The translations under genes and the position numbers were made by a program. Under the pieces are notes generated by a model. That model saw only the letters and a list, made by a program, of their open reading frames with translations. It was not told the origin of the DNA and did no database searches. From a candidate division WOR-3 bacterium (GTDB lineage Bacteria > Hydrothermota > Tepidihabitantia > SM23-42 > JAOAFX01), in assembly GCA_039802265.1 (NCBI GenBank), contig JBDRWI010000039.1, positions 1-22,193 of the forward strand: a stretch of 22,193 nucleotides of DNA, written 5' to 3'. Shown here piece by piece: positions 1,687 through 20,356 of the stretch. Numbering within the stretch: the first letter of the stretch is position 1; each line of letters opens with the position of its first letter.

Positions 1687-4293
1687 ATGAAGATAATTAT
1701 AGAGAAACTAAAACAAAATTTACATTCGGGTTGGGTTATTGCCAACCACATCCTTGTCTCCTTCCATGTTGCATTTATTTCATCCATTTTGTGCATTTCC
1801 AAAGATTTACAAGGGAAGGAAGTATTGGGATTTGTCTTTACAAGTGTTGATACAATAATCTCAGCAATCTTCTGGTTTATAAGCTTCCATACCGGGATTG
1901 CCATCCACGAGATGGGGCATTACCTAAGGGCAGTGAAACTCAATGCCCTGAATGAAAATATTTTACCCGCTGCCCAGAAAAGATACAAAAGCTCAGGCCT
2001 TAGTAAACTATTATGGTATATAGAAATGTTCATCAAAATTCCCTATGGAAAATTCACGGGAGTAAAGAAAGAAGGATTGACATATTATCCAGAAGCCCCA
2101 TTCAATCTAAGCGTTGCGGCCGCCGGTCCTGAAATCAGTGGTAATATGGCACTCGTGATATTGCCCGTCGCTGTGATTCTTCTGGCAATTGGACTTATTG
2201 GTGACCGCTTAATATTCACATATATAGGCAGATTATGCCTTGGTATTGGAACTGTGGGACTGCTTGACTTTCTCCTCGCTGACCCGGGTAAATATCGTGA
2301 ATTTAAAGAACGGGAAACAAAGGCGAAACAGAAGGCGGAAAAGATAGAAATATCAAGAACCGGCTGGTTAGAAAAAGCAAAGGCAGTAAAGCGAATGATG
2401 ATGGAAAAAAGAATTCAAACAATCCATCTAAAGGATGGCGAAATTGTGAGTGCACCATGGCAATTCAGAAATTGTGGTATGGGTGGCAGGCATACTGAAA
2501 AAGAATATCCGGAAAGTAATATCAGTATGCAGGAAATGATGTTTTTGCCATTATGTGCAAAGAATTATGAAGAGGCGCAGATGATCACCGTTGCCCTTCA
2601 GACCCGTCTAAAAGAGATAATAGAAAAGTCCGAAGGTGCTCGGGTGATGGGAATCGGCCTCGAAGGTGGTCTGGCACCTTATATTGCGAAAGAACCTGGG
2701 GATATTGTTCCTGAGCAGAGGCTCTGGCGGATGGCAATTCAGGCAATAAAGGATATCGGTTATCGTCCTGGTGAGGATATTGCCCTTGCATTCGACCCGG
2801 CTTTAAGCGAATTGAGTAATGCCTACCGAGAGGAATTCAATCAACCGGATGCCGTGGGCATGTATTATTTCTGGAGAAGCGAAGAAAAGGTAGTTATGTC
2901 GCGTGACCAATTAATTGAATTGTATAAAAAAGCAGTTGATGAACATCCAATTTTCTCACTTGAGGATGCCTTCGCCGAAGACGATTACGAAGGCTGGCGC
3001 CTATTAATGAAAGAATTAGGGAACAACTTATTTATTATCGGTGATGACATTGTAACCACGAAGGATTCCACGATCGAAAAATGCGCCGATGAGGGTTTGA
3101 TGAATGTCTCTCTCATAAAGGCAAATCAAATAGGTACCCTGTCCGAAACTTTAATCGCAATGCTTGTTGCCTTAGGCAAAGGTATGGATTTACTCGTCTC
3201 CCATCGTTCCAAATCGCCAAATGACGATATGGAGGCACAGATTGCCCTTTCGGCAAATACAATGGGATTAAAAGCCGGAGGCGGTGCTAATACTGAAAGG
3301 CTATTTAAGTATGGTTCAATTACAAAGATAATGAAAGACCTTGAAAAAAGCACCCAACTTGAATATGAGAAAAAAGATTTCAGCGCAATTAAAGAGTTAT
3401 TTAATAATTTGTTCATCACGGATGTCATTGCCTATGAGGAACCGACCAATGCCGGTATTCCCACCGTTGGAGTCGATATTTATGTGGGGATACCCGGCAG
3501 TGAGGAGTATCGCAAAATTCTTAAATTCAGCGGTTCTACTCCATTGGGAACATCGGCTGGAACTGGCGAGGCGATCCACCTTATTGACAGCACAATTGAA
3601 AAAACATCGGTGGTGGAAAAGTACCCTGAACTGTTTACACTCCAGCCCGATAAAACATATAAATTTAAAAAGGGCATAATAGAATCAGAATTAAAGGCGA
3701 AGAATGAACCGGAACTCCTCAAACTATGGTATCGAGTTCAAAGATATGAAGGAAAGGGCTGTCAGAATGCAGTGGAAAATGTTACAAATATCATTGCCAA
3801 AGAATTTATTGGTCAAAAAATTTCTGAATTTAAATCCATTGCCCAGATTGACCGTAAATTATTGATGCTGGAAAAAGGACTGGCAATCAGTCGTGGGAAA
3901 CTTGCTCCGAATGCCTCAATAGAAGAACAGATTGAAATAATGCAGAGGAAGGGCAATTTGGGTATGAATGCAATCCTATCTATGTCTCTTGCCCTGGGAA
4001 GAATGCTTGCTCACCTTCAGGGTAAGGATTTGTGGCAACTTCTCCGTGAAGAGATGAAGATTACTATCGCCAAGGTGCTTGAGGCAAACAATGCTATTGA
4101 ATTGCTGGAACCATTCGTGTCCAGAGATTTATTTAATAAACTAAAATCGGTTCCCAAGGGATACTGGCAACTCCTTGTTCAAATACCATTTTCAGAACTC
4201 GTTAAGTGTCTACAGGCATTAGAGAAAAAACTGAGAGCCGAGAATAAAAAACTATATCAAACATTGCGCAATCAAAATCCAATCTATTTTTGA
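1687..4293 (+). CDS. M50/site-2-protease-like membrane domain fused to a circularly permuted enolase-like protein
   Basis: aa 1-200: about 4 hydrophobic segments, HEMGH (74-78), VAAAGP, LADPG. aa ~256-553: enolase barrel motifs GGRH, QEMM, GLEGG, AFD, SLED, GDD, LIKANQIGTLSET, VSHRS, GLKAG, ERLFKY. aa ~576-786: enolase N-domain motifs GIPTV, PLGTSAGTGEA, RYEGKG..AVENV, IDRKL, KGNLGMNAILSMSLA. Confidence 0.9.
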   Translation: MKIIIEKLKQNLHSGWVIANHILVSFHVAFISSILCISKDLQGKEVLGFVFTSVDTIISAIFWFISFHTGIAIHEMGHYLRAVKLNALNENILPAAQKRYKSSGLSKLLWYIEMFIKIPYGKFTGVKKEGLTYYPEAPFNLSVAAAGPEISGNMALVILPVAVILLAIGLIGDRLIFTYIGRLCLGIGTVGLLDFLLADPGKYREFKERETKAKQKAEKIEISRTGWLEKAKAVKRMMMEKRIQTIHLKDGEIVSAPWQFRNCGMGGRHTEKEYPESNISMQEMMFLPLCAKNYEEAQMITVALQTRLKEIIEKSEGARVMGIGLEGGLAPYIAKEPGDIVPEQRLWRMAIQAIKDIGYRPGEDIALAFDPALSELSNAYREEFNQPDAVGMYYFWRSEEKVVMSRDQLIELYKKAVDEHPIFSLEDAFAEDDYEGWRLLMKELGNNLFIIGDDIVTTKDSTIEKCADEGLMNVSLIKANQIGTLSETLIAMLVALGKGMDLLVSHRSKSPNDDMEAQIALSANTMGLKAGGGANTERLFKYGSITKIMKDLEKSTQLEYEKKDFSAIKELFNNLFITDVIAYEEPTNAGIPTVGVDIYVGIPGSEEYRKILKFSGSTPLGTSAGTGEAIHLIDSTIEKTSVVEKYPELFTLQPDKTYKFKKGIIESELKAKNEPELLKLWYRVQRYEGKGCQNAVENVTNIIAKEFIGQKISEFKSIAQIDRKLLMLEKGLAISRGKLAPNASIEEQIEIMQRKGNLGMNAILSMSLALGRMLAHLQGKDLWQLLREEMKITIAKVLEANNAIELLEPFVSRDLFNKLKSVPKGYWQLLVQIPFSELVKCLQALEKKLRAENKKLYQTLRNQNPIYF

Positions 4294-4335: not shown

Positions 4336-6042
4336 ATGAAACAGAATTTTAAGACCTTCTGGGATATTGAGCGGGAAAAGACGCACAATATCTTCTTGTT
4401 ATTTCTCTTTCTCATCCTCCAATACTTTTTCACTTTTTTTGTGATTACCCTTTTCTTTAAACTTTTGCTTTTTTTTATGAAATCTCTTGGGAATTCCCAT
4501 TTGAGATTTCATATATTCGGCCCTGATACATTAATTGTCTTCAGTGTGGCAATTATTGCTGCATTGATTCACTGGTATTTTTCTAATAAAAATATGATAA
4601 ATAACATTCTGAAATTGCTTGGTGCAATGCCGCCTGATAAAAAGGATAAATACCATCATTTCTTTGAAAATGTGGTAGATGAAATAAGTGCTGCAGCTGG
4701 TGGTATAATAGTGGAGAAATATATTATACCAACTGGAGCAATGAATGCATTTGCTATTGCGGATTTAAAGGGCAGACGGGTTGTTGGTGTAACCGAAGGT
4801 TTGCTTTCGCGATTAAGCCGAGAGGAACTACAGGCGGTTGTCGCCCACGAAATGACACATATTGCCAGTGGTGATTGTGTGATGACAACTATTGCCAGTT
4901 CGCTCTTTGGCGTTTTCAGTGAAATTATAGAGCATTTTAATCAGATATTAACAAAGAGAAGGACAAAAGACGAGGAAGAAGGATTCATTTTTGATATCAG
5001 CAGTAGTGAAAAACAGGCATTAGCATTACAGTCATTGACATATCTACCCATTGCCCTTCCAGCTTTTATTATATTATTTTTTAGCAATATAATGGGACAA
5101 ATCCTCAATATGTTCATTTCGCGGGAGAGGGAATATCGGGCCGATGCTGGAGCAATAAAATATACAAGAAATCCACTTAGCCTTGCTACTGCCTTATACA
5201 AAATTGCCACACACTGGCGGGGCACAGCCGGGCATCTATCGCCAATATTTATCCTGAGTCCCCAGTTTAACCCGCTTGAAGACCGTGAGGATTTCTTTGC
5301 CAATCTATTCTCCACCCATCCACCAATTACAAGAAGACTGCAGATAATCCTGGACATTGCCCATGCCGACATCAATCAAATTTACGAACAAATCAGTAGC
5401 CGGAAAATTGGAAAAGAAGCCGAAGTTAAAAAAACTGAGCCAGTATTTTTTGTAGAATTTAACGATAAATGGTCTGGACCATATACAATTTTACAACTTC
5501 AGACCCTTGATGGGTTATCACCCCAAACCAGAATACGCCTGGCGGAAAGCGATGAGATAATATTAGCAGACTCAATTCCTGCCCTCAATCATTTCTTTAA
5601 GGTAAGGGATGAACCGATATGGAAAATCAGACGCCTCTGCCCTATTTGCCGTCAGTGGTTGATTGTCCAAGCGTATGAAGGACTTTATCTATGGCGGTGT
5701 GCATATTGCGATGGGATTTTAGTAGAAAGAGATAAACTTCCCCGTATATTTGTGCGGGGAGAAAAAGGTTTCAATGAGCAAATCCAGAAAACTGCAAAAC
5801 TTTTGCATACTGAAGCAAAGAAAAAGCAGAGGGTATTTAGGCTCCTCGTTGAGACAGCCCATCCGTATAAATGTCCAAAATGCGGTAACTCAATGATAAA
5901 AAGATTATATAGTTATGCTTACCACATTGAAATTGATGAATGTCCGAAATGTAATTTAATCTGGTTTGATAAGGATGAACTGGAAATTTTACAGTGTTTG
6001 ATTGAACTGGAAGAAAAAAATGAAAGAAGAAGAAATCATTAA
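4336..6042 (+). CDS. HtpX-like M48 zinc metalloprotease with C-terminal GYF-like segment and two zinc ribbons
   Basis: N-terminal TM helices, MNAFA, VTEGLL, ELQAVVAHEMTH (HExxH at 171-175), SREREYRADA, LATALYKI, LFSTHPP..RL; then WSGPY, CPIC..CAYC and CPKC..CPKC..IWFDKDEL (TFIIB-type zinc ribbon pattern). Confidence 0.88.
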   Translation: MKQNFKTFWDIEREKTHNIFLLFLFLILQYFFTFFVITLFFKLLLFFMKSLGNSHLRFHIFGPDTLIVFSVAIIAALIHWYFSNKNMINNILKLLGAMPPDKKDKYHHFFENVVDEISAAAGGIIVEKYIIPTGAMNAFAIADLKGRRVVGVTEGLLSRLSREELQAVVAHEMTHIASGDCVMTTIASSLFGVFSEIIEHFNQILTKRRTKDEEEGFIFDISSSEKQALALQSLTYLPIALPAFIILFFSNIMGQILNMFISREREYRADAGAIKYTRNPLSLATALYKIATHWRGTAGHLSPIFILSPQFNPLEDREDFFANLFSTHPPITRRLQIILDIAHADINQIYEQISSRKIGKEAEVKKTEPVFFVEFNDKWSGPYTILQLQTLDGLSPQTRIRLAESDEIILADSIPALNHFFKVRDEPIWKIRRLCPICRQWLIVQAYEGLYLWRCAYCDGILVERDKLPRIFVRGEKGFNEQIQKTAKLLHTEAKKKQRVFRLLVETAHPYKCPKCGNSMIKRLYSYAYHIEIDECPKCNLIWFDKDELEILQCLIELEEKNERRRNH

Positions 6043-10028: not shown

Positions 10029-11222
10029 TTATGCGCCGAATTTCTTGAGTTTTAAGGCATTGGCGAGTAAGAGCGGAAAAAAGTCCATTGCCTTCATTGT
10101 GCCGAGGGTACCTCGGGCACAGTTTCGTTCGTTAAATTCAAAACCATCGGGGAAGATGTAGCGGGAATTTAATAGTAATGGGCATGGATGCCAGGAGTGG
10201 GAGTGCAGGAGGGTCGGGGTGGAATGGTCACCGGTAATGCATAGCACATCGGGTTTCAGGTTCAGAATTCTGGGAAGGCAACGGTCAAACTCCTCTATCG
10301 CCCTTATCTTTGCCTCAATATCTCCATCTTCGCCTGCCTTATCCGTTGCCTTGTAATGGAGATAAAAAAAGTCAAAGTTATTGTAGTTCTCTTCTAATGT
10401 TGTAACCTCATCATCTATTGAGTCACCGGTTTTTAAAATCTCCATCCCCACGATTCGTGCCAATCCGCGATACATTGGATAACTTGCGATCGCACCACAG
10501 TTCAGCCCGTATTTCTGATTCATATTCACAAGATTCGGTAGCCGTGAATAGCCTCGCATAAGTATGTAATTTGCCTTTTTTTCATCTTTTAATATTTCAG
10601 CACTTCTCGAGATAAAACTGTTTACTATTGTAGCACTTCGTTTTGCAGAAGGTATCTTTGCTCGGACCAAAACCGGTGGTAAATTGTCTTTCTGGGGGTC
10701 AGCATCGGTGATTTCCGGTGAGAGACTGGCACCCTTAAATATTACAACAAATCGATGTTCCTTGGCTGGTCTTATTACTACCGGAATACCGTTGATCTCT
10801 TCCATCCCTTTTTGTAGCTTACCACAGAGCCGTGTGCATTCCTCGGTAGAAATCCTGCCTGCCCGACGGTCAATAATAATATTGTTCTTGATTGTGGCAA
10901 AGTTTGCCCTTACCGCCAGGTCCCTTTCATCTATCTCAATGCCTATTCCCAGTGCTTCAAGGACTCCCCGGCCAATTTGATTTTCTATTGGGTCATAACC
11001 AAAAAGGGCGAGGTGTGCCGGACCGCTGCCGGGAGTTACTCCCGGAGCGATCGGGATTAAAAGTCCGAGGCTACTTTTCTGGCTTAATTTATCAAGATTC
11101 GGTTTATGAGCCAGTTCCAGCGCACTTTTTTCAGGATTTGGTAAATCACCCAATCCATCAAGCACAATAAGTAAAATTTTATTATCGTTTTTGTTTAAGA
11201 TATCAGAGAGAATCTTTTCCAT
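10029..11222 (-). CDS. apgM: 2,3-bisphosphoglycerate-independent phosphoglycerate mutase, ApgM type
   Basis: [75 protein letters not shown] 11222 preferred because TTG 11228 overlaps the -10 element. Confidence 0.92.
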
Positions 11223-11227
11223 TGCCA

Positions 11228-11256
11228 AATATATCCAAAATTTTGGTTGGTGTCAA
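11228..11256 (-). promoter_or_regulatory. internal promoter for apgM-purH, probably leaderless
   Basis: TTGACA (11256-11251), 17 nt, TATATT (11233-11228); 5 nt to ATG 11222. Confidence 0.65.
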
Positions 11257-14801: not shown

Positions 14802-14928
14802 CTATTTTATTATCACGGCCTTTTTCTTGGCGGTTTTGTGCTCACCATCATCAGCATAAAAATCAAAGACATAGATATAAACACCAGGAGCCAGCCTCTT
14901 ACCCGCATCATTCTTCCCATCCCAGGGA
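14802..14928. repeat. 127-bp exact direct repeat, second copy at 22067-22193 (cut by the window edge)
   Basis: Base-by-base identity from the stop codon (CTATTTTATTATCACGG...) to ...CCCATCCCAGGGA; identity ends exactly at the stop codon. Confidence 0.97.
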
Positions 14929-17900
14929 TAATAATGAATTCCAAAATCATAATGACGATTGGTTATCAACCTCCGCACCAACTCACCCGCACGAGTATAA
15001 ACCTCTAAGTTAACACGACCCGACTTCGGCAAACTGAAAATAAACTGAGTTCTGTCCCTGAACGGATTACGAAAATTATGCACCCCAAAAGGCGGCACCA
15101 GAATCGTCCTTAGTACCACACTATCCCTCACCTCCTCCCTCATACTACACTCACCATAAACAACCAAATCAAAATAAATCAAACTATCCAGTAAACCAGA
15201 AAAACTAAAAGTATCCGGCGCACTCACCCGCACCACAAAATCCTTGGAAACATCAGGATTAACCACACCCAGATCAACCAAACCATCCTGATTATTATCC
15301 CTTAATAAACTACCACCCTTATCCAACAACTCAACCTGCCAACCACTAACTACATCACTACTCTTGATATTCACAACATCCGAAAGATTCGCCCGCAAAA
15401 CCACCCACAACGGATAACTAACACCCCCACCAACCTCAACCCGACTACCCTGATCCGGCTCAACCAATAATCCCCAGATACCACCCAAACTCCCAGTCAT
15501 TAACACCACATCATCAAATACCACAGTATTATTGCTGGAAATCGCCCGCACAAAGACCGTATCAACCACACCAGGATTCACCAGCGGCACCTTCACCCGC
15601 ACCACCAAACTCTCACAACCACCAAAACCACTGACTAACCCCAAATCCACCAGACCATCACCATCCGTATCCATAAGCAAATTACCACCCAAATCACGCA
15701 GGGTATAACTAAATCCACCACCAATAATACTCAAATCAATCACATCACCAGCATTACCTAAATTATTCACCCATAACAAATAATCAATTGAATCACCACA
15801 ACCCGCTGAATCACTACAATCAGGCTCAAACAAAACCTGGGCAACCGTCCCAACCATCAAAACACAAACCGACGAATCCCGCACCGTAGAATCCCGACCC
15901 GAATAACCATAAACCAATATCGTATCCCTGGTACCCGAAGGCATATTCGCCGGAACCAATACCCTTAAATTAAAATCTACCTCCCCACCCAAAGGACCAA
16001 CACCAGACAAATCCACCAACCCATTACCATTATGGTCAACTAATTGATTACCCAATGAATCCAATAATTGATAACTATAACCAAACTGATCAATATACCG
16101 CAAATCAATGGTATCCGTAAAATTCTGATTGTTGCGACAGGATAAAACAAAATTCACCCAATCACCTGGAAGACCCGTAGCCTGCTGGTCAGGAAAGATA
16201 ATTATTGAACCCATCCCCTCAATAATTGTAATAATCGTTGCATTGTCAGTGACTGACGGATTGAGACCGGAACGACCGGTTAAAACCAATGTATCAGCCT
16301 CACCAGCAAGGGCAGTATCCGGCGAATATACCACCAATCTAAATCTAACCGAATCCGAACTACTAACCCAGAGGTCAACCAAACCATTGTTATTATGGTC
16401 TGTGAGCGGCGAACCCGTTGAATCTAAGAGCACAACACCCCAGGGCTTATTGTGATTGTAGTACAAATCTACCGTATCACGATTCGTCCCTTGATTATAA
16501 ACCCACAAATCATAACCTATCGGCACACCCGCAACTGTTGAACCAACCCGATCCGGCTCAACCAAAATTGCTGCTATATGTCGGATTGTCGTCGTAATAT
16601 ACACAGTATCAACAAGAAGGGGATTGATATTAGAATTACCAATTAACCTCAAAGAATCAACCTCACCACCCTGGGCACTTGAAGGCGGTGTAACCGATAG
16701 AACAATCGGCACTGTATCATTGATATTTATTATTACATCCGGAATTAAATTGTTATTATGGTCAATCAAAGGAATTGTACCCGTGGAATCAAATAACCCA
16801 ACCTGCCAGTTGGTATCATGCTGATAAACTAAATCAACCGTATCAAGACCAATCCCAATATTTATCACCCGGATAGAATAATCAACCCGCACATTGGGCA
16901 AGGTAGAATCCGCCTGATTCGGCTCAAGGATTAATCTAACCGCTGAACCATAACCAATACGCACCTCAAACAAATATGGTAAATACGAAGGATTGGTATA
17001 TCTCAACCTTGCCCGATACTGTAAATACCTTGAATTTAGACTATCCGGAATATCGTCATTCTTACCCAAAGAATCCCAATCGCTCCAGGAGGTATCAGGG
17101 TTTGGTGTATTACCACTACGCACAAAAAAGGCAATGCTTGAACCCGGGGGCAGACTATCATCCCAATCCACCACTCCCCAGGCAACCACCTCACCCGCAT
17201 CAAAGACCGAAGAGATATAATCCTCATAGTATTTACGATTATAGACATTGCCAATCTCCCGGAACATACTACAATCATCGCGTGCATTCGGCAATTGAAC
17301 CATTATACTATTATAATTGGGTCCATTCAAGATATAGCTCGGCTCCGGTGGATAAGAATAATTATTGACAAGAATATCAAGGTAACCATTGTAATCAAAA
17401 TCTGCAATCAATCCGCCACTTGCATCAATTGGAAACCCTATCGCCGTCTTGTTACTCTCAGAATAGCCTGAGGCACTACCCCAGTATATTAGTGGGTTCT
17501 CTTCAACACCATATCCCTTTAAGAAAAGAATATCCAGATAACCATCATAGTTTAAATCCGCAACCGCATTACCACCAAAACAACCACCCGGTAATAATGT
17601 CTGCCATAGACTAAAACCATTCGGCCCACCTGTATAGATATACGCCGTAACTCCATTAGACCAGGTAGAAATGACAATATCCAGATATTGGTCATTATTT
17701 AAGTCAGCAACTGACGCTCCATTAGGAGAATCGCCTGCACAGGGTAAAACCTCCCGATTATTCTCCGAGAATCCACTATCACTTCCCCAGTATAGATAAC
17801 AAGAATTGTTAAGGCCATTTAACTCCAGCAAATCCAACCAGCCATCTCTATCAAAGTCTGCCGATTCGATGTTTCTTCTGTTGTTATAAGAAGGGAAGAT

Positions 17901-18476
17901 ATCCACATTATTAGAGATACCCATTGAATCCCCATATAAAACTGCACCCTGATTGGATGTTCCATATCTATTTACCGCCAAGTCCAGATAACCGTCTTTA
18001 TTGAAGTCAGCGAGATAACAGGTCTCGTTAATTACATTGCCTAAATAAATATCAATGTAATTATTGGGATTCGGTCCTGATGAAGCGCCCCGGAACATCC
18101 TTACTTTACTCGATGACTGTTGTTGGGCAACGAATAAATCAGGGTATCCATCATGGTTTATGTCTCCGGCATTACAACCGATTGAACCAATGGTGCCTGT
18201 TGGATAGTATGTAACATTCACTGGATTATAGCCACTTGCACTGCCCCAATAGACATAAGAATAGTCTGACTGTTCATTGGTTATTACAATATCCAGATAG
18301 CCGTCGCAATTTAAATCCCATCTTGAAGCAAATTCAATAGTTCCGCTGTCTCGCTGTGATGCATAAATATTACACTCATAAATTCCATCCTTGAAATCTT
18401 CCTGAGTAGTTTCAAGCCATTGATTCTCGGCGAAGCCAATAGTCGTGAATAAGAAATAATATAATAATTTTTTCAC
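14802..18476 (-). CDS. large secreted FG-GAP/VCBS repeat protein with five Ig-like repeats and a C-terminal FlgD-Ig/T9SS-like domain
   Basis: Signal peptide MKKLLYYFLFTTIGFA; seven D(L/F/I)(N/D)xDGYxD-type repeats with YWGS; five ~120-aa repeats starting xxEP(D/N) or xxFPD; C-terminal NPF..T...F.LP...V.L.VY...G.LVR.L.....G.....WDGKNDAG....GVY. GTG start overlaps the upstream TGA. Confidence 0.9.
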   Translation of the reverse strand: MKKLLYYFLFTTIGFAENQWLETTQEDFKDGIYECNIYASQRDSGTIEFASRWDLNCDGYLDIVITNEQSDYSYVYWGSASGYNPVNVTYYPTGTIGSIGCNAGDINHDGYPDLFVAQQQSSSKVRMFRGASSGPNPNNYIDIYLGNVINETCYLADFNKDGYLDLAVNRYGTSNQGAVLYGDSMGISNNVDIFPSYNNRRNIESADFDRDGWLDLLELNGLNNSCYLYWGSDSGFSENNREVLPCAGDSPNGASVADLNNDQYLDIVISTWSNGVTAYIYTGGPNGFSLWQTLLPGGCFGGNAVADLNYDGYLDILFLKGYGVEENPLIYWGSASGYSESNKTAIGFPIDASGGLIADFDYNGYLDILVNNYSYPPEPSYILNGPNYNSIMVQLPNARDDCSMFREIGNVYNRKYYEDYISSVFDAGEVVAWGVVDWDDSLPPGSSIAFFVRSGNTPNPDTSWSDWDSLGKNDDIPDSLNSRYLQYRARLRYTNPSYLPYLFEVRIGYGSAVRLILEPNQADSTLPNVRVDYSIRVINIGIGLDTVDLVYQHDTNWQVGLFDSTGTIPLIDHNNNLIPDVIININDTVPIVLSVTPPSSAQGGEVDSLRLIGNSNINPLLVDTVYITTTIRHIAAILVEPDRVGSTVAGVPIGYDLWVYNQGTNRDTVDLYYNHNKPWGVVLLDSTGSPLTDHNNNGLVDLWVSSSDSVRFRLVVYSPDTALAGEADTLVLTGRSGLNPSVTDNATIITIIEGMGSIIIFPDQQATGLPGDWVNFVLSCRNNQNFTDTIDLRYIDQFGYSYQLLDSLGNQLVDHNGNGLVDLSGVGPLGGEVDFNLRVLVPANMPSGTRDTILVYGYSGRDSTVRDSSVCVLMVGTVAQVLFEPDCSDSAGCGDSIDYLLWVNNLGNAGDVIDLSIIGGGFSYTLRDLGGNLLMDTDGDGLVDLGLVSGFGGCESLVVRVKVPLVNPGVVDTVFVRAISSNNTVVFDDVVLMTGSLGGIWGLLVEPDQGSRVEVGGGVSYPLWVVLRANLSDVVNIKSSDVVSGWQVELLDKGGSLLRDNNQDGLVDLGVVNPDVSKDFVVRVSAPDTFSFSGLLDSLIYFDLVVYGECSMREEVRDSVVLRTILVPPFGVHNFRNPFRDRTQFIFSLPKSGRVNLEVYTRAGELVRRLITNRHYDFGIHYYPWDGKNDAGKRLAPGVYIYVFDFYADDGEHKTAKKKAVIIK

Positions 18477-20356
18477 TTCAGCCTTATTATTTTTTTACTG
18501 ATATTCCAATTTTCTTGGTTTATTTTTTGAAGGTTTAAAATCACAAAGTAAATACCTGATTCAACGCTACGATTGGAATTGGTATCTCCATCCCACCAAA
18601 GGCAATAATGACCTTGTTTATAAAATCTATTTTTGATAATATCTTTTATCAATCTTCCTGAACAATCATAAATCTGTAAGTTGACTATTCCTCTATCAGG
18701 GATTATAAAAGAAATCTGCGTCTTACTGCTATATTGAGGGTTAACATTGAGGCCCAACGAATTGAAAAATTTTGAGTGTAGATTTTCATTTACACCAGGT
18801 GCCTGATGATAGAAAACCTTTATACTATCAAACGAAAAAACCGAAGTTCTCTTATAATCTGTTGTGAAAATGCACCGGTACTGAAGATATCTTTTTCCAG
18901 CAAGCAGCGTATCGGTTGCCCCATTGGATAATAAAACCCACCTTCCCCAAGCAGTCGTATCAAGTGCACCCCTTACCCACACCGAGCACGTAACTCCAAT
19001 AGGAAAATTTCCCCACCATTTCACTGAATCAACAACTATTGTATTACCAGCATCAAAAACACTTGATAAATACCTCTCTTTATTTGACCTATCCCAGATA
19101 TTCCCTAAGTCTTCCCACACCGCATCATCACAATTGTCCGGGAAGGTGAATTTTCTTGTGGAGTCAAATCCAATTAAGCTATTCCAATAGAGATATGTTG
19201 GACCGTAAATGCCCCCTGCGAGTAAATCCTTTAATCCATCATTATTCCAGTCGGCAACATTGATTACCATCGGAGCATCCTCAACCGGTAATTGCACCCT
19301 TGATTGATATTGGGGACCCCACCAGATTGAACATGCACCATCATAGCGATGGCTTAATGCTATGTCAATTGCACCATCATTGTTAACATCCTCACAAGAT
19401 ATATCACCTTTACCTGAACCCGGTAAGAAAGTGCGATTACTGACTGAATATCCGACAGATGACCCCCAATATATGCAGGATGAATCGCTGTTTTGAGCAA
19501 ATACTACATCAAGAAAACCATCCATATTCAGGTCTGCAATTGAATGGTCATAGTTAGGAGAAGCCGGTAAATCCTGATAGGAGACAAAATTAGCCCCCCA
19601 GAAGATTCTAATAGTACCATTCTGATTATGGGAAACTGAAATATCAAGTAGACCATCATTATTCAAATCAGCAATGTTTATACCCGAAGCTATACCTGCG
19701 GGACAATTCAGGACATAGATGGGCTCAGTGTTTGCAAAAGGAGGTGGTCCAGGATAGATATAAGTGATTGTTCCTCCACTCACCAATATATCCAGATAAC
19801 CATCATTATTGATATCACATGGCTGTAAATCCTGTGTATAGGGAGGACCATACTTTACCGAATCATCAGGTGTTAATGAATAACCGGTTGCCGAACCATA
19901 AAATATAGACCCCCGCCCCGGGTCATAAGATGCAATCAATATATCCTGATAACCATCGCAATTTAAGTCAGCAAGCGAGATACCCTGCGGATTTAAAGAG
20001 AATCCTGTAAGGTTTGTATAATTTGATGTATTAAATCCATTAGCGGAATTCCAATATATCCTTGCTGTGCCTTGTTGAAACCAATCAAGAACAACATCTA
20101 AGTACCCATCATCATTTAAATCCCAGTCTCGACCAATTATTCGCACCCCCCCTGAGAAAGGTGAATAGACATAACCACCAATCTCCCATCTTCTAATTTC
20201 CGCCGAGTTCCATTGGGTAGCAGTATCACCACCTAAATAGTAATACTCAAAGCCATCAACAAAATCTGAATGGTTCTTTTCAACCCAGACACCTTCAGCA
20301 AAAAGAATGAAAAACGGCAGGCACATCAAATACGAAAGATGGAGATAACCCACCAT
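18473..20356 (-). CDS. secreted FG-GAP/VCBS repeat protein with a C-terminal FlgD-Ig/T9SS-like domain
   Basis: Hydrophobic N-terminus; seven D(L/I/V/W)NxDGxxD repeats; SSVFDAG and RYLQYR shared with the downstream paralog; IYDCSGRLIK..WDG...SGIYF tail; SD AGGGGGAG. Confidence 0.9.
   Translation of the reverse strand: MVGYLHLSYLMCLPFFILFAEGVWVEKNHSDFVDGFEYYYLGGDTATQWNSAEIRRWEIGGYVYSPFSGGVRIIGRDWDLNDDGYLDVVLDWFQQGTARIYWNSANGFNTSNYTNLTGFSLNPQGISLADLNCDGYQDILIASYDPGRGSIFYGSATGYSLTPDDSVKYGPPYTQDLQPCDINNDGYLDILVSGGTITYIYPGPPPFANTEPIYVLNCPAGIASGINIADLNNDGLLDISVSHNQNGTIRIFWGANFVSYQDLPASPNYDHSIADLNMDGFLDVVFAQNSDSSCIYWGSSVGYSVSNRTFLPGSGKGDISCEDVNNDGAIDIALSHRYDGACSIWWGPQYQSRVQLPVEDAPMVINVADWNNDGLKDLLAGGIYGPTYLYWNSLIGFDSTRKFTFPDNCDDAVWEDLGNIWDRSNKERYLSSVFDAGNTIVVDSVKWWGNFPIGVTCSVWVRGALDTTAWGRWVLLSNGATDTLLAGKRYLQYRCIFTTDYKRTSVFSFDSIKVFYHQAPGVNENLHSKFFNSLGLNVNPQYSSKTQISFIIPDRGIVNLQIYDCSGRLIKDIIKNRFYKQGHYCLWWDGDTNSNRSVESGIYFVILNLQKINQENWNISKKIIRLK

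Follow-up and report, generated by a model that had tools for sequence, protein, structure and literature searches.

A circularly permuted enolase joined to a membrane domain, probably the sole enolase of its lineage, in a candidate division WOR-3 bacterium

Introduction

Can an enolase work with its two domains in reverse order and tied to a membrane? Few enzymes of central metabolism are as conserved as enolase and, to our knowledge, its cap-then-barrel order is treated as universal. The question is raised by a contig of a candidate division WOR-3 bacterium (JBDRWI010000039.1, GenBank assembly GCA_039802265.1), of which we analysed the whole stretch of 22,193 nucleotides, hereafter called the window. 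A single open reading frame (ORF) in the window (1687..4293, + strand, stop codon included) encodes, without internal stop, a protein of 868 amino acids (aa) that we call P0001. An initial annotation of the sequence had described positions 2452-4044, corresponding to aa 256-786 of P0001, as a permuted enolase with its catalytic residues intact and its surrounding loops altered. Here we find that P0001 is probably a catalytically competent, membrane-tethered, circularly permuted enolase and the sole enolase of its lineage.

The barrel precedes the cap in P0001

As reference we used canonical enolase (phosphopyruvate hydratase, EC 4.2.1.11), which is composed of the domains Enolase_N and Enolase_C, is recognized by the equivalog model TIGR01060 and is represented by the structures 5ohg/1e9i (E. 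coli), 4a3r (B. subtilis) and 1ebg (yeast). In P0001, Pfam finds the match to Enolase_C (aa 262-558, E 2.3e-51) ahead of that to Enolase_N (aa 684-729, E 1.4e-11; 45.2 bits with a cut-off of 35 bits). A phmmer search of the Protein Data Bank (PDB) returns the same order, with aa 265-557 matching residues about 152-418 of bacterial enolases and, in a separate alignment, aa 576-632 and 685-787 matching enolase residues about 3-136. Both searches put the barrel ahead of the cap, as the initial annotation had proposed. P0001 is a genuine circular permutation, barrel first and cap second, unlike every solved enolase.

The TIM barrel spans aa 246-557 (2422..3357, +), as delimited by Pfam Enolase_C, by structural alignment with VIA-align and by active-site residues running from H269 to K529. 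At the permutation joint, a new connector bridges the barrel and the cap (aa 558-575; 3358..3411, +); it has no counterpart in canonical enolases and is weakly conserved, with a conservation of 0.34 over aa 561-580 in the alignment of 118 relatives described below. The cap domain follows at aa 576-800 (3412..4086, +), placed by Pfam Enolase_N and by alignments with PDB and canonical sequences, and holds the loop GTSAG with residue S623.

Two insertions in the cap, reported by the annotation at aa 636-685 and 731-754, are recovered upon alignment with 45 canonical enolases at about aa 635-685 (3589..3741, +) and about aa 731-752 (3877..3942, +), each facing a gap in all canonical sequences. The alignment also reveals insertions that the annotation had not listed: 8 aa in the cap at about 603-610, and three small ones in the barrel, after H269, after GLEGGLAP and at about 381-388. 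The protein ends with the helical C-terminal tail that the annotation had described, found in our structure model at aa about 801-868 (68 aa; 4087..4290, +). This tail is part of the conserved module: its helices, at 804-863, are modelled with a block predicted local distance difference test score (pLDDT) of 89-97, its Y867 is invariant in 69 aligned sequences, and matches in longer members of the family extend to aa 867.

The full-length AlphaFold2 (AF2) model of P0001, built from this 69-sequence alignment, has a mean pLDDT of 87.5 and a predicted template modelling score (pTM) of 0.83. Its best Foldseek matches are enolases (E about 4e-14; root-mean-square deviation, rmsd, of 2.5 Å over about 300 columns). 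VIA-align superposes the model on E. coli enolase (5ohg_B) with Z 28.0 and an rmsd of 2.2 Å over 278 residues (model 252-555 on residues 142-419), and on yeast enolase (1ebg_A) with Z 26.2; these structure aligners are order-dependent, and the superpositions cover the barrel alone. As to the cap, we infer that the loop with S623 would close over the Mg2+ site of the barrel as it does in an ordinary enolase.

Active-site residues are invariant and neighbouring positions are substituted

The annotation had named 12 residues as equivalents of the yeast active site. All of them (H269, E283, E326, D370, E426, D453, K478, H506, R507, S508, K529 and S623) stand where they were reported, within the motifs GGRH, MQEMM, GLEGG, AFDPA, SLEDA, GDDI, LIKANQIG, SHRS, LKAG and GTSAG, and both phmmer against the PDB and a domain-wise alignment put them in register with the motifs of bacterial enolases. 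The yeast residue numbers given with them are textbook numbers and agree with the superposition of aa 246-555 on 1ebg_A 140-422.

We identified 975 related proteins at E<=0.001. The best 120 of these 975 are 50-81% identical to P0001 over the full length, and the 118 of them that are 780-1000 aa long were aligned to score conservation. Fourteen residues, H269, E283, E326, D370, E426, D453, D454, K478, H506, R507, S508, K529, S623 and E628, are identical in 118/118 sequences, as are the family-specific residues K509, S510 and P511. The residues for metal and phospho-acid binding and for acid/base catalysis are evidently under strong selection because they are invariant in all 118 relatives. The annotation had suggested such selection on Mg2+ and phospho-acid binding and had offered conservation among homologues as its test; at 50-81% identity the ligands are kept throughout, and so is every named residue.

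The positions around these residues are altered. In a domain-wise MAFFT alignment of 37 permuted sequences with the 45 canonical enolases (37 representatives of 400-470 aa, taken from 77 listed, and eight from relatives' loci), all five motif changes of the annotation are seen, namely GDEGG to GLEGG, SHRSGET to SHRSKSP, DSRGNPT to TNAGIPT, GASTG to GTSAG and IKTG to LKAG. Columns conserved in at least 90% of the canonical enolases are kept to the same residue in at least 90% of the permuted sequences at 38 of 51 positions in the barrel and 14 of 19 in the cap. Fixed differences from the canonical form include N265M, D325L/T, G509K, T511P, I516E, R535N, S588N and D729E, with D325L/T, G509K and T511P family-wide. 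Judging by this alignment, the rewiring of the near-invariant surroundings is a fixed property of the family. The permuted enolase is a natural test case for the tolerance of a two-domain enzyme to rewiring.

Most of the tested carriers have no canonical enolase

The source genome is a metagenome-assembled genome (MAG), 89% complete and in 110 contigs, in which TIGR01060 finds the P0001 ORF alone. None of the 15 genomes of the same GTDB family, 11 of them at least 90% complete, has a TIGR01060 match over the cut-off; all 14 control genomes do. In the order as a whole, a canonical enolase is present in 29 of 48 genomes, distributed as 20 of the 21 without the permuted form versus 9 of the 27 with it. 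Five further carriers scored with the same model divide into three without a canonical enolase (G146, G063 and G065) and two with one (G062 and G067). Across the phylum, the permuted form occurs in 37 of 271 genomes; 32 of these 37 carriers were tested with TIGR01060 (G064, G066 and G255-G257 were left out), and 21 of the 32 are without canonical enolase, 16 of these being at least 90% complete. One genome of the same order, G016, 94% complete, has neither a canonical nor a permuted enolase that we could find.

P0001 is likely the working glycolytic enolase of its host because no canonical enolase gene is found in the source genome or its family. It would interconvert 2-phosphoglycerate (2-PG) and phosphoenolpyruvate (PEP), at a predicted location on the cytoplasmic face of the membrane. 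In several lineages, the genome counts suggest, the permuted form appears to have replaced the normal enolase, and automated pathway reconstructions based on the enolase equivalog model will report a broken glycolysis for these organisms.

Genes for the neighbouring steps are consistent with this role. The window encodes an apgM-type cofactor-independent phosphoglycerate mutase (iPGM), the supplier of 2-PG, whose gene (10029-11228, -) lies 6 kb away from that of P0001. A complete pyruvate phosphate dikinase (PPDK) lies on another contig of the source genome and is its sole gene with a PPDK_N domain. A fragment of glyceraldehyde-3-phosphate dehydrogenase is found at a contig end of the source genome, and phosphoglycerate kinase (PGK) is present in 13 of the 15 family genomes. 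The annotation had left room for a differing substrate. This is disfavoured: 21 of the 32 tested carriers have no enolase homologue besides the permuted protein and otherwise keep the lower-glycolysis genes that we checked, which argues for ordinary 2-PG/PEP chemistry. The lack of another enolase and the presence of these pathway genes form the chief, if indirect, argument for real enolase activity. The gene itself is present in eight hot-spring metagenome runs, none of which is an RNA run.

Set beside canonical enolase, P0001 holds both domains, shares the barrel fold (Z 26-28) with about 30-39% identity in the barrel, keeps all catalytic, Mg2+ and phosphate ligands and probably fills the same metabolic role, being the sole enolase in 21 genomes. 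It differs by its reversed order, its new connector, the 68-aa helical tail and the two large cap insertions, by its fusion to a membrane domain and by a score below the equivalog cut-off. In phylogeny, too, its family stands apart, on a separate long-stem clade with fixed substitutions at near-invariant positions.

The N-terminal domain remotely resembles site-2 proteases

What would tie the enolase to the membrane is a domain of four helices at aa 1-200 (1687..2286, +), recognized by its hydrophobic segments (about aa 16-38, 46-72, 145-175 and 178-198) and by the helices of the model (H15-36, H44-84, H141-172 and H175-198, with a beta-hairpin at 126-135). Within helix H44-84 lies HEMGH (aa 74-78; 1906..1920, +), a motif of the zinc-binding HExxH type that is conserved in the family: among the 118 aligned relatives, 114 have H74 and E75 and 117 have H78, the remainder being gaps. 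H27, H68, N140, A145, A146, G147, P148 and D199 are invariant in the 69-sequence alignment, in which at least 90% of the sequences have N20, H21 and D194. A K/R-rich helical linker (aa 201-245; 2287..2421, +; model helices H202-218 and H227-240) runs from the fourth transmembrane helix to the barrel. We predict an N-in/C-in topology with a cytoplasmic enolase on the basis of the positive-inside rule, because the loops 79-140 and 199-260 are rich in lysine and arginine (10 and 16 such residues, respectively).

The domain recalls the M50 family of site-2 proteases (S2P), for which we took M. jannaschii S2P (3b4r), RseP (7w6z) and SpoIVFB as references. As in these proteases, HExxH stands at the end of a transmembrane helix; after it come a beta-hairpin and a helix bearing an AGP-type motif, and the last helix has a conserved Asp. 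Known S2Ps also carry soluble regulatory domains; we know of no fusion of an S2P to an enolase. P0001 departs from the references in having extra family-conserved histidines (H21, H27 and H68) and in showing no NxxPxxxLDG motif, the source of the third zinc ligand in M50 proteases: its last helix reads GLLDFLLADPG, with D199 invariant and D194 nearly so, but without the N..P..LDG pattern of the relatives' bona fide M50 proteins (NLIPIPPLDGS).

All measures of this similarity are sub-threshold. Pfam Peptidase_M50 (PF02163) matches P0001 weakly at aa 65-242 (E 0.028); the protein scores 14.2-15.8 bits, and its N-domain 15.8 bits, below the gathering cut-off of 27.2 bits; among 21 N-domains of the family, 18 match it at E<=1, the best at 6.1e-6. 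With hhalign, ten M50 proteins of 350 aa from the same order give a probability of 45% (E 2.2e-4) with HExxH and the AGP motif aligned, and six of 210 aa give 7.9%. The stand-alone model of the N-domain has a pLDDT of 80.2. Compared with 48,161 chains, it finds S2P chains at ranks 3 and 4: 7w6z_A with Z 7.2 (122 residues at an rmsd of 4.6) and 3b4r_B with Z 7.0 (102 residues at an rmsd of 2.8 Å, 20% identity). Unrelated helical proteins tie with them, and no chain of the 48,161 reaches Z 8. Searches of the PDB with the N-domain gave no match with Foldseek at E<=0.001 and none with a profile at E<=10. ESM Atlas features for aa 1-250 have two clusters named Peptidase M50 as nearest neighbours, with a score of 0.86, below the level at which the tool treats a match as more than a lead. 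We therefore infer an M50-like domain that would be a remote relative of the family, M50 membership itself falling below every significance line. The fusion raises the question of why PEP formation should be tied to the membrane.

Long forms of the family carry dikinase domains

P0001 is the shorter of two kinds of protein in which the module is found. The species-representative sample consists of 80 stretches, all from MAGs, kept out of 287 in which the module was confirmed, and ORFs and neighbours were counted at 79 loci. At these loci, 35 family ORFs are 780-1100 aa long and 43 are of at least 1100 aa, mostly 2026-2290 aa. Twenty of the 43 long forms were scanned for domains: PPDK_N occurs in 19, the phosphohistidine mobile domain in 17 and the PEP-utilizers_C barrel in none. 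The long forms contain the module in full (aa about 10-867), and those of about 2,030-2,290 aa share with P0001 the membrane domain, the permuted enolase and the tail at 50-59% identity; unlike them, P0001 ends after the tail and has neither the PPDK_N ATP-grasp nor the phosphohistidine domain according to Pfam. One of 20 other representatives has a complete PPDK.

The recurrent fusions with PPDK domains link the module to PEP metabolism and hint at an unrecognized PEP-linked phosphotransfer chemistry. Together with the HExxH domain, these fusions elsewhere in the family indicate that the module probably does more than housekeeping. A bolder and rather unlikely reading would make the permuted enolase the core of an undescribed membrane-associated PEP machine, its active site doubling as the PEP donor/acceptor site of the dikinase, with the 868-aa form a stripped-down version that later displaced the canonical enolase. 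Permutation would then have freed the N-terminus of the barrel for a metal-binding intramembrane domain and the C-terminus of the cap for PPDK-type ATP-grasp and phosphohistidine modules without a PEP barrel of their own. A barrel-less PPDK-like partner encoded in the source genome was considered and rejected, since the only PPDK_N gene there is the complete PPDK.

The single long form of the 20 without PPDK_N (L070:2738-9607, +) has a borderline C-terminal match to glucose-6-phosphate isomerase (E 4e-4; 20.1 bits with a cut-off of 20.7 bits).

Evidence for and against a housekeeping enolase

Several observations weigh against P0001 being simply a membrane-anchored housekeeping enolase. A canonical enolase coexists with the permuted form in 11 of the 32 tested carriers, often immediately downstream; in those genomes the permuted protein is dispensable for housekeeping and may have another role. 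The TIGR01060 match of P0001 is 225.4 bits, and about 198 bits in the genome scan, against an equivalog cut-off of 300 bits. Some of the positions that are near-invariant in canonical enolases and fixed otherwise here lie beside the active site (D325L/T, G509K, T511P, I516E, R535N and N265M). PGK and pyruvate kinase were not found in the source genome, an 89% complete MAG. Finally, the invariant HExxH suggests that the N-terminal domain binds metal and does more than anchor.

This last point could be extended to propose that the enolase module is a 2-PG/PEP sensor gating an active intramembrane M50-type metalloprotease, with turnover secondary, much as known site-2 proteases are regulated by CBS and PDZ domains. 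We consider this improbable. The HExxH motif is indeed conserved in 114-117 of 118 sequences and the N-domain remotely similar to M50, but the assignment is sub-threshold by each measure (Pfam 15.8 vs 27.2 bits, hhalign 45%, Z 7.0-7.2); similarly, D199 is invariant, D194 nearly so and the AAAGP motif conserved, yet no NxxPxxxLDG motif is seen. The acid/base pair K478/E326 is invariant, though a pure sensor could do without it. In favour of sensing, a canonical enolase coexists in 11 of the 32 tested carriers; against it, 21 genomes have no other enolase. Membrane proteases do adjoin the gene in some lineages (M48 in the window and in family relatives, rhomboid in two others), but no protease neighbour is conserved across phyla.

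The long forms invite another explanation, in which the module handles PEP at the core of a larger phosphotransfer machine: PEP or its phosphoryl group would pass from the enolase site to a PPDK-type phosphohistidine and ATP-grasp unit lacking a PEP barrel of its own, and the short form would feed a stand-alone PPDK at the membrane. The domain content of the long forms (PPDK_N in 19/20, the mobile His domain in 17/20, PEP-utilizers_C in 0/20), with the whole module embedded in them, agrees with this proposal, as does a source genome that uses PPDK and in which no pyruvate kinase was found. P0001, however, has no dikinase domain, the sole PPDK_N gene of its genome is that of the complete PPDK, located on a different contig, we see nothing that links the two physically or genomically, and we know of no precedent for direct phosphotransfer from an enolase site; we hold this explanation to be quite improbable. 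There is next to no chance that the fusion and the domain order are artefacts of assembly or gene calling. Although the MAG is fragmented into 110 contigs and has a second, truncated copy of the 5' end at a contig end, the ORF is free of internal stops and the same uninterrupted architecture recurs widely: 37 of the phylum's 271 genomes have it, as do hundreds of database proteins, and species-representative genomes of independent projects contribute 287 stretches with it. A working, membrane-tethered enolase thus remains our preferred reading of P0001.

Distribution and origin of the permuted family

The 287 confirmed stretches of species-representative genomes and the hundreds of database proteins reveal a natural circular permutation, joined to a protease-like membrane domain, that is widespread in uncultured bacteria of many phyla. 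The 80 loci kept are labelled WOR-3/Stahlbacteria, Ignavibacteria, Omnitrophota, Aminicenantes, Cloacimonadota, Planctomycetota, Dehalococcoidia, Myxococcota and Gemmatimonadota, among others. One family member (L056, contig JBHLOP010000012.1) comes from a MAG labelled Promethearchaeota archaeon, where a canonical enolase is encoded close by on the opposite strand; its presence could reflect gene transfer or a binning error. As judged by titles and abstracts, we found no description of such an enolase in the literature, nor any work pairing WOR-3 with enolase or enolase with Peptidase_M50; passages of PMC2575518 are unrelated to a permuted enolase. The permuted, membrane-anchored form of enolase is likely new, being undescribed in the literature searched.

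In a quick IQ-TREE phylogeny (LG+G4; 82 rows x 430 columns, comprising 45 canonical and 37 permuted sequences), all 37 permuted sequences fall on one side of a branch with SH-aLRT support of 100 and a stem of 0.8, and the canonical enolases of the same phylum group among other canonical enolases. The annotation had called for re-alignment with canonical enolases and a tree; the outcome is a set of active-site residues in register and a permuted family that forms one clade, a pattern that fits a single, old permutation event. At six loci of relatives, which belong to two families of the phylum, a canonical enolase gene stands immediately 3' of the permuted gene on the same strand, an arrangement also seen at 8 of the 79 loci of species-representative genomes. 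Because the canonical gene directly follows the permuted one at these loci, the permuted form would seem to have originated by tandem duplication followed by fusion.

The source genome also holds a second copy of the first 181 codons at the end of another contig (C70:10090-10632), with 91% protein and 87.8% DNA identity. Its upstream DNA is unlike that of the window, and it could be a paralogue or belong to a second strain binned into the same MAG.

Neighbouring genes

No neighbour cluster in the 79 loci reaches beyond close kin, so the permuted enolase has no conserved partner gene there. Membrane proteases nonetheless recur beside it, M48 in the window and rhomboid in two other families. Directly 3' of the P0001 gene, at 4336-6042 (+), is a gene for a 568-aa M48 (HtpX-like) metallopeptidase with a C-terminal zinc ribbon. 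It holds the same position in 7 of 9 loci of the family and lies 2.5 kb off in one sister genus; in the remaining lineages examined it was not found beside the permuted enolase. Two other families of the phylum have a gene for a rhomboid intramembrane protease directly upstream (L021:6689-7354, -, and L022:6979-8433, -), in one of the two with tetratricopeptide (TPR) repeats.

Farther along the window, at 14802-20356 (-), two genes encode large FG-GAP repeat proteins of 1224 and 627 aa with C-terminal domains of the CHU_C/T9SS type. GC skew drops to -0.57 in 15001-16000, within the gene for the 1224-aa protein.

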